Source: Escherichia coli | GTDB taxonomy: Bacteria; Pseudomonadota; Gammaproteobacteria; Enterobacterales; Enterobacteriaceae | DNA: 64,000 bases | Assembly (NCBI RefSeq): GCF_044647545.1 | Contig: NZ_CP172818.1 | Direction: 5' to 3' (one strand) | Shown: piece by piece, positions 29,908 to 32,900 of the stretch | Layout of the letters: each line of letters opens with the position of its first letter | Numbering within the stretch: position 1 is the stretch's first letter | The notes under the pieces: model-generated | Told to the model about the DNA's origin: nothing | What the model saw: only the letters and a program-made list of their open reading frames with translations | Database searches by the model: none | Made by a program: the position numbers and the translations under genes

Positions 29908-32900
29908 TTACTCAACAGGTTGCGGACGCGCAGGAGCGGCAGAGGCATGATGCGTTGCCGTATGACCACCTGCGGCACCTTTGCCTTCGAAGGCAAAAGT
30001 AGGGCGCTGCCAGTCACTGTGACGCGGTGCCTCCGGAACATATTCCGGTGCCGGAGCGCGCGTCATTGGCGCGGTAGCGTGGTTATGCTCAACGGTGATC
30101 TCTGGTTCAACCGCGGCTACCGTTTCAACTTCTGCTGCGACTGGTGCGGCAGGTTGAGCAACAACTTCAGGTTCAGCAACCACAACCTCAGCAGTTTCGG
30201 CAACTTCTTCAATATCAGCCGTCTCTTCCTGCGGTTCAACTACCGGTTCTGCGTGTTCTGCAACTTCCTGGGCTACGGCAACATCAGACTCGGTAATCAC
30301 CTGCGGCTGTTCAGTTACCGCGGCGGCAATTACTTCAGGATGCGTCGTTTCAGCCATTTCCGGTTGCGGTTCGGCAACCTGAACGGGGGCTTCTACGACT
30401 TCAGCCACTTCTTCAACAACCGGTGCGCTAACAACCGGTTCGACAGCGGCGGCGACAGGGACCTCAGTCACCATCGGCTGCACTTGTACTTCTTCCTGTT
30501 CGCGCTGCTCTTCGACCTGTACATCTTGCGGACGTACAATTGGATAGCGGATCCAGACTTTGCCAGAGGCCAGTTCCGGAGATGCGCACGCTACGGTCAA
30601 CGGCATTGGCGATTGGGTTGGATAACGCTCGTCACGATAGCGACGACGACGCTGACCACTCACGCGCAGGTGACGAGGCGAGCGGCGAGAACGACGCGGC
30701 ATGCCACCGTTGTCACGGTTATCGGCATTGTTCTCTTCTTGCTGTTCTGGTGCAGCTTGCGCTACGACTGGCAGCGGGACTTTCACCAGTTCTGTGCGTG
30801 GAGCTGGCGCTTCCTGAACAATTGGTTCGGCAACGACAGTTTCTTCAACCACCGGTGCGACTACCGCTTCTTCGGCTACGCTTTGCTCGTAACGCACTTT
30901 CTGATTGAGCTGACGCTGTTTACGACGCGGCTGAACCGGACGTACACGTTCTTCCTGTTCGGTTTCCTGAACAGATTGCTCTTCAACATTCAGCGCCTTC
31001 GCTTCTTGTTGCGCCTGACGTTTATCATCGTTACGGCGGCGGCTACGTTCACGACGCGGCGCTTGCTGCTCGTCGGTGGTACGCGCTTTTTCCGTTACCT
31101 CAGCCTGCTGACGGCTCTCACGCGTCTCGGCAGTTTGCTGCTGTGCCTGGCGACGATTACGACGGTTTTCTTCGCGATTATCGCTGCCTTCTGTACGTTC
31201 ACTACGGGAGTCGCGGCGCTCATTACGGTCACGGCGGTTGTTCTGACGAGGCTTGCGACGATCCTGTTGACGTTCCGGTTTCGCTTCTGCTTTCGGTGCT
31301 GGTTGCTCGGCCGGTTTGGTTTCTTCACCACCGCTGAACAGCGCTTTCAGTGCGCCGAAGAAGCGGCTCAACAACCCAGGTTGTGCAGGAGCTGCTGGTG
31401 TTGCCGGTGCAGCTTTAGGTGCTGGGGCTACGACAGGCGCGGCAGGTTCAGCTGGCGTTGGCGCTGGCGGCACATCCGGCATGGCAAAGGTAGCCAGCGC
31501 AGGTTGTTCCGGACGCTTACGTTCAGCGAACTCTTCTTCAGACGGCAGCGCCATCGCTTCTTCATGCAGCTTCGGCAGCATGTAGCTTAAGGTTGGAGTT
31601 TCTTCCCCTTTACGCACGCGCAGCACATGGTAGTGCGGGGTTTCCATCTGATCGTTTGGCACAATCACACAGCGCACGCCGTCCTGACGAGTTTCAATCG
31701 CATTCACTGCAGAACGTTTTTCATTCAGCAGATAAGACGCGATTGGCACAGGAACAATGGCGTGAACTTCCTGGGTGTTCTCTTTCAGCGCTTCTTCTTC
31801 GATCAGACGCAGAATAGAGAGCGACAGCGATTCGTTGTCACGCACGGTACCGGTACCGGAGCAGCGCGGGCAGACGTGATGGCTGGATTCACCCAGTGAT
31901 GGGCTCAGGCGCTGACGGGACATTTCCAGCAGGCCAAAGCGAGAAATATGGCTGATTTGAATACGCGCACGGTCCTGACGCACCGCTTCACGCAGACGGT
32001 TTTCTACCGCACGCTGGTGGCGTACTGGCGTCATGTCGATGAAGTCGATAACAATCAGGCCGCCGAGGTCACGCAGGCGCAGCTGACGAGCAATCTCATC
32101 GGCAGCTTCGAGGTTGGTGTTAAACGCGGTTTCTTCGATATCGCCGCCGCGGGTCGCGCGTGCGGAGTTGATGTCGATGGCGGTTAACGCTTCGGTGCTG
32201 TCGATAACAATGGAACCACCGGATGGCAGACGAACTTCACGCTGGAAGGCGGACTCAATCTGTGACTCGATCTGGTAGTGGCTGAACAGCGGGATCTCGC
32301 CGGTGTACAGTTTGATTTTGCTGCTGAAATCCGGGCGACCTAATGCAGCGATATGCTGGCGTGCCAGTTCGAGCACTTTCGGGTTATCGATAAGGATTTC
32401 GCCGATGTCCTGACGTAAGTAATCGCGGAATGCGCGAACGATTACGTTGCTCTCCTGATGAATCAGGAACGGAGCCGGGCGGCTTTCAGCGGCTTTTTTG
32501 ATGGCTTCCCAGTGTTTCAGACGGAAGCTTAAATCCCATTGCAGCGCCTCAGCAGATTTGCCGACGCCAGCGGTGCGCACGATAAGCCCCATGCCTTCCG
32601 GCAGTTCAAGGCTTGCCAGTGCTTCTTTTAATTCGGTACGGTCGTCGCCTTCGATACGACGAGAAATGCCACCCGCGCGCGGGTTGTTCGGCATCAGAAC
32701 CAGATAGCTACCCGCCAGACTGATAAAGGTGGTTAATGCCGCGCCTTTGTTGCCGCGCTCTTCTTTATCGATCTGAACAATGACTTCCTGACCTTCACGC
32801 AACACATCTTTAATGTTGGGACGACCATGAGCACTGTAGTTAGCAGGGAAATATTCGCGGGCAATTTCTTTTAGTGGGAGGAAACCGTGACGTTCAGCGC

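Follow-up and report, generated by a model that had tools for sequence, protein, structure and literature searches.

A derived 12-nt in-frame deletion shortens the C-terminal linker of RNase E in an ST648-type lineage of Escherichia coli

The DNA analysed here, a continuous stretch of 64 kb referred to below as the window, carries the rne gene on its minus strand within the gene order flgK/flgL - rne - rluC, as found in strain MG1655. The gene consists of a single open reading frame at 29908..33081 (3174 nt), composed of 1057 codons and a TAA stop codon (29908-29910). The deduced protein of 1057 amino acid residues possesses the complete Pfam architecture of Rne, namely S1 (residues 36-117, 48.7 bits), RNase_E_G (residues 121-391, 330.4 bits), RNase_E_G_Thio (residues 403-488, 108.5 bits; the small, thioredoxin-like domain located after the Zn-link) and PNPase_C (62.8 bits). 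Residues R169, T170, D303, N305, D346, C404 and C407, the catalytic and 5'-sensor residues together with the Zn-link cysteines, were all found at the expected positions; this list reportedly goes back to the structure that Callaghan and colleagues described in 2005. Upstream of the coding sequence, at 33106..33442 (minus strand), the 5' UTR autoregulatory element rne5 (Rfam RF00040) was detected as a full-length match (model positions 1-333), with 260.1 bits versus a gathering score of 180. The stop codon is followed, at 29866..29889 (minus strand), by an intrinsic terminator with a 10-pair hairpin stem and a T-run (AAGCCCTGGTAACTGCCAGGGCTT then TTTTATTT), which does not differ from that of the reference genomes. 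By every defining feature that can be tested on the sequence, the gene of the window is RNase E.

The corresponding gene of E. coli K-12 MG1655 (b1084, NC_000913.3, 1141182..1144367) has a length of 3186 nt and encodes 1061 amino acid residues. Global alignment of the window protein with MG1655 Rne (NP_415602.1) revealed identical residues 1-590, 13 substitutions confined to residues 591-999 (T591A, T625S, A669T, A750V, T776A, H866Q, I880V, G894E, V909M, V910A, Q943H, V961A and V999I) and, as the sole gap, four missing residues opposite V981-V982-A983-E984 (VVAE). The catalytic N-terminal half (residues 1-529; 31495..33081, minus strand) is identical to that of K-12 at the protein level. Alignment of the nucleotide sequences (97.5% identity, which places K-12 near the bottom of the E. 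coli rne identities) yielded 69 substitutions and one 12-nt gap, with the reading frame kept; since this gap is the only one, a frameshift as the cause of the shorter protein was ruled out. In the N-terminal half, all 25 codon differences between the two genes are synonymous, whereas the C-terminal half has 30 synonymous ones and 13 that are nonsynonymous, a contrast that fits a tightly constrained enzyme followed by a relaxed, spacer-like scaffold and linker. The domain order (S1, RNase E/G catalytic domain, Zn-link and small domain, MTS, AR1, HBS, AR2, EBS, PBS) is shared with MG1655, as are the flgL - rne - rluC synteny, the rne5 5' UTR and the terminator. An earlier sequence-only reading of this DNA had given 1061 residues for K-12 Rne against 1057 here, had regarded the catalytic half as canonical and had sought the difference in the C-terminal half, within 29908-31600. 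All of this was confirmed: the span corresponds to codons ~495-1057 and contains the junction of the gap (30137-30143), the K-12 protein is indeed the longer one, and the pairwise alignment proposed there as a check returned a clean in-frame indel of four residues.

Published coordinates of the RNase E scaffold place the MTS at residues 565-582, AR1 at 604-644, HBS at 719-731, AR2 at 796-814, EBS at 834-850 and PBS at 1021-1061 (Aït-Bara, Carpousis and Quentin, Fig. 1 legend, PMC4435900). In the window, these microdomains are encoded on the minus strand at 31336..31389 (MTS), 31150..31272 (AR1, an arginine-rich RNA-binding region), 30889..30927 (HBS, the helicase site), 30640..30696 (AR2, arginine-rich), 30532..30582 (EBS, the enolase site) and 29911..30033 (PBS, the PNPase site, here residues 1017-1057 and recognized as Pfam PNPase_C). 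MTS, HBS, AR2, EBS and PBS are the same as in K-12, and AR1 differs by one conservative change only, T625S; the degradosome-binding microdomains, whose integrity the sequence-only reading had wished to see checked, are intact. The substitution A750V lies within the more broadly defined segment 698-762, at the margin of the wider RhlB/Hfq-interacting segments. A scaffold bearing MTS, AR1, HBS, AR2, EBS and PBS sets RNase E apart from RNase G, and the window protein has all of them. With its catalytic half and binding sites identical to those of K-12, the protein would be expected to have endonuclease activity and to assemble a degradosome with RhlB, enolase and PNPase.

Twelve of the 17 positions that differ from K-12 (the four deleted residues counted) are concentrated in the linker that joins the enolase site to the PNPase site, K-12 residues 851-1020. 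In the window this linker comprises residues 851-1016 (30034..30531, minus strand). It is an acidic, low-complexity tether without a mapped partner, dominated by Val, Glu, Ala and Pro (V42, E35, A29 and P20 of 170 residues in K-12, with a net charge of -36).

The opposite strand of the region encoding the C-terminal half carries an open reading frame of 556 codons (29920-31590, plus strand), antisense to rne and in phase with it, whose translation is of low complexity and rich in F, R and L. It arises because rne is free of TTA, CTA and TCA as sense codons beyond codon 498, a feature shared with K-12; the 557 codons of this part of rne include only 16 for Leu and 21 for Ser. The frame was rejected as a gene and is regarded as a by-product of codon content.

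The junction of the 12-nt in-frame deletion, equivalent to K-12 codons 981-984, was located at 30137..30143 on the minus strand, the gap covering CDS columns 2940-2951. The exact breakpoint is ambiguous, as the gap slides over 5 nt owing to the 5-nt repeat AGTCG. The closest full-length E. coli allele found, that of strain BroCaecum-55 (99.0% nucleotide identity), keeps VVAE and a length of 1061 residues and reads CC[AGTCGTCGCTGA]AGTCGCAGCAGA at the deletion site. The 12-mer that was lost and the 12-mer that follows it in this allele are identical at 9/12 positions and both start with AGTCG, i.e., they share a microhomology of 5 nt. The 12 nt would have been removed by replication slippage or by microhomology-mediated deletion between these imperfect direct copies, AGTCGTCGCTGA and AGTCGCAGCAGA, which encode VVAE and VAAE, respectively, so that one unit of the imperfect duplication was probably eliminated; copies of this kind are typical substrates of both processes. 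Slippage appears no more than plausible, since the junction repeat is weak and below the threshold of Tandem Repeats Finder (TRF), which detected no tandem repeat at the indel site, either in the window or in K-12, down to a minimum score of 30. As the repeat escapes detection by TRF, the word "repetitive", used for this region in the sequence-only reading, applies to its compositional bias and not to a tandem array. Two other origins were considered and set aside. A deletion between the 6-nt AGTCGC repeats of K-12 would take out 9 nt and not 12, and it is the 12-nt register that fits; a TRF-detectable tandem-repeat origin was dropped, only the 9/12 imperfect duplication with its 5-nt microhomology being present.

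Comparison with complete genomes revealed that the rne coding sequence of the window is 100% identical, in nucleotides and amino acids, to those of E. coli FDAARGOS_497 and of the strain named "ST648", in which the product is annotated as WP_022645526.1. Genomes encoding this protein (e.g., NZ_CP008697.1 and NZ_CP033850.1) have an rne gene that is the same as that of the window in every nucleotide and residue, with 1057 codons; they differ in the adjacent sequence, harbouring an intact tacA/tacT pair downstream of rne where the window has degraded sequence. BroCaecum-55 Rne (WP_077516769.1, 1061 residues) is found in the same flanking tacA/tacT-flgL context and, besides VVAE 981-984, shows six further amino acid differences from the window protein. 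Outside the degraded stretch, the window and FDAARGOS_497 are 99.915% (positions 1-29266) and 99.994% (positions 29796-64000) identical, whereas identity to MG1655 is 98.1-98.6%, positions 29094-29855 being without a K-12 counterpart. Strains named ST648 and IMT16316 are among those with the rne allele of the window, and both presumably belong to sequence type 648, phylogroup F. The short allele was recovered from humans, dogs, poultry, wild birds and wastewater. Judged by these sequence identities, the strain of the window is a member of the ST648-type E. coli lineage and not of K-12. The earlier description of the window as K-12-like, and probably not MG1655 itself, holds in its second part only: identities of 99.9-99.99% to ST648-type genomes versus 98.1-98.6% to MG1655, together with a toxin-antitoxin locus that K-12 is without, do not agree with a K-12-like strain beyond the level of the species. 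Its view of the shorter protein as strain-level variation, not novelty, was correct, as the exact protein is an existing RefSeq entry, WP_022645526.1, which is correctly assigned to ribonuclease E in the annotation of dozens of genomes.

The interval between flgL and rne differs from that of related genomes. At 29267-29795, with mismatches starting from 29217, the window contains a segment of 529 nt rich in homopolymers, among them runs of T24, G16, T16 and A15, in which a base equals its predecessor at a frequency of 0.636 (versus 0.278 in the reference) and the A+T content reaches 71% (versus 50%). This stretch occupies the place of an intact tacA (DUF1778)/tacT (GNAT) pair of 626 nt in ST648, FDAARGOS_497 and BroCaecum-55. 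Its identity to the reference falls smoothly from both edges to ~45% at the centre, and the GNAT gene is readable for its last ~40 codons only. It is the sole stretch of its kind in the 64-kb window, and no match to it was found among complete E. coli genomes. It has the appearance of corrupted, low-quality or non-biological sequence rather than of biological gene decay. A further gap of 15 nt lies between positions 29087 and 29088 (ATGAGACATAACGAA in the references), flanked by the terminator of flgL and the stop codon of the GNAT gene; these 15 nt are present in 685/685 complete genomes with the GNAT gene at this place, and the gap would be a deletion private to the window or else belong to the degraded-stretch artefact. 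In the intact flank, positions 29806-29835 (minus strand) strongly resemble a sigma-70 promoter (ATGACA, 18-nt spacer, TATAAT; 11/12); this match is located just upstream of the expected tacA start and is presumably the promoter of the toxin-antitoxin operon. The flgL-rne spacer as such is a presence/absence polymorphism, with the GNAT/DUF1778 module occurring in 685/5,426 complete E. coli genomes; in K-12 the spacer measures 57 nt and covers the 3' portion of the flgO sRNA region.

The homopolymer-rich, non-biological-looking sequence lies ~110 nt downstream of rne, and the 15-nt gap beyond it occurs in none of the 685 comparable genomes. Both observations speak for an error of sequencing or assembly as the source of the four-residue difference in Rne itself. 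Against this stand the identity of the entire 3174-nt coding sequence to the independently sequenced FDAARGOS_497 and ST648 genes, the 100% identity of the 3' 793 nt of rne, deletion included, in at least 60 complete, independently assembled genomes, and the size of the gap, which is exactly 12 nt and in frame. An error within rne is so improbable as to be negligible: the presence of the same sequence in dozens of independent assemblies rules out an artefact in this gene.

The polarity of the change was examined with a degenerate DNA pattern for the invariant PNPase-site motif, which retrieved six Escherichia species-representative loci, five of which cover the deletion site. The sequence P(V/I)VAE-VAAEV was kept in all five, i.e., in E. 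albertii, E. whittamii, Escherichia sp. MOD1-EC7003, Escherichia sp. E1V33 and a divergent representative labelled "E. coli". Since these five outgroup lineages and BroCaecum-55 have the long form, the state of the window is a derived deletion. The opposite course, with an ancestral short form and a 12-nt tandem duplication (VAAE to VVAE-VAAE) acquired by K-12 and the majority of other E. coli, takes some appeal from the additional 12-mer of K-12, which resembles an imperfect tandem copy of its neighbour (8-9/12 nt identical). It is nevertheless very unlikely, because the long form is present in 5/5 outgroup Escherichia lineages covering the site and in phylogroup-diverse E. coli including O157:H7, K-12, O6:K2:H1 and BroCaecum-55, and no short form was found in the outgroups or in basal E. 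coli lineages. Any duplication must therefore predate the sampled genus-level splits, and the state of the window would still be a secondary loss.

The frequency of the short allele was estimated with a 301-nt query across the junction, for which a 12-nt gap would limit identity to 96.2%, so that values of at least 99% mark the short allele. Such values were obtained for 108/5425 records of complete E. coli genomes with rne (~2%). In evenly spread samples of 60 E. coli genomes, the K-12 span was found in 58/60 (whole gene) and 57/60 (junction), and the short span in 1/60 and 2/60, respectively; genomes with the K-12 span include O157:H7, O6:K2:H1 and K-12 derivatives. On these sequence counts, the length of the Rne scaffold is very uniform within E. 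coli, with 1061 residues in ~98% of complete genomes. The deletion most likely arose once and would then have been passed down in the clade that makes up ~2% of complete E. coli genomes. One genome, that of E. coli GN4738 (NZ_CM177114.1), showed a different pattern: only 81% of the rne query was matched, in two pieces spanning 2577 nt, which points to an assembly problem or to a far more extensive deletion in the C-terminal scaffold.

Length differences at the same place were also detected in other species of the genus. The RNase E of E. albertii (1069 residues) has nine additional residues after K-12 residue 977 (AEPEAVAQL, a near-copy of the preceding AEPEVVAQP), and that of Escherichia sp. 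MOD1-EC7003 (1055 residues) lacks six (EVVAQP, K-12 residues 972-977). Both proteins share the microdomain order and the invariant PNPase site with the window protein, and both differ from it in keeping VVAE 981-984. Sequence alignment thus places three independent in-frame indels (+9, -6 and -4 residues) within ~15 residues (K-12 ~970-985) across Escherichia, and the scaffold outside K-12 ~970-985 aligns nearly gap-free. The sequence-only reading had called the C-terminal half repetitive and prone to in-frame indels. Within E. coli this did not hold, given the absence of a TRF repeat and the K-12 length of 57-58/60 sampled genomes, while the three indels across Escherichia species lend it support at the level of the genus.

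With the deletion, its position, polarity and distribution and the intactness of the microdomains directly observed, we consider the gene of the window, with a probability of about 0.93, to be a normal, functional rne of the ST648-type lineage carrying a derived 12-nt in-frame deletion, most likely produced by slippage and expected to be approximately neutral. The loss shortens the disordered tether of ~170 residues that connects the enolase site with the PNPase site by ~2% and spares the mapped catalytic, membrane, RNA and protein sites. From its position outside the mapped microdomains, the deletion would be selectively neutral or nearly so. The ~98% fixation of 1061 residues could reflect a possible constraint on linker length, in which case the change of four residues may not be fully neutral. 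An adaptive role, in which the shorter tether tunes degradosome geometry in the ST648 lineage, has its arguments in this uniformity, from which a phenotype appears possible, and in the fixation of the allele in a successful, internationally sampled clade. We give it only a slim chance. The four residues are part of ~170 disordered ones and the mapped binding sites are untouched, nearby positions tolerate +9 and -6 residues in sister species, and fixation in one clonal lineage is what a hitch-hiking neutral marker predicts. It is likewise hardly to be expected that tether length is under stabilising selection and that the ST648-type shortening measurably alters PNPase positioning or degradosome function and so contributes to the biology of the lineage.

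The presumably near-neutral deletion described here is of very low biological weight, being a lineage-marking in-frame loss that affects a disordered spacer in a protein already studied in depth. The rne sequence of the window is trustworthy despite the corrupted sequence located ~110 nt away, and the 12-nt deletion provides a simple marker of the ST648-type lineage as opposed to K-12. With the indels of the sister species included, the RNase E scaffold of Escherichia emerges as most tolerant of length changes at K-12 residues ~970-985, a site useful for the placement of tags or for tether engineering.
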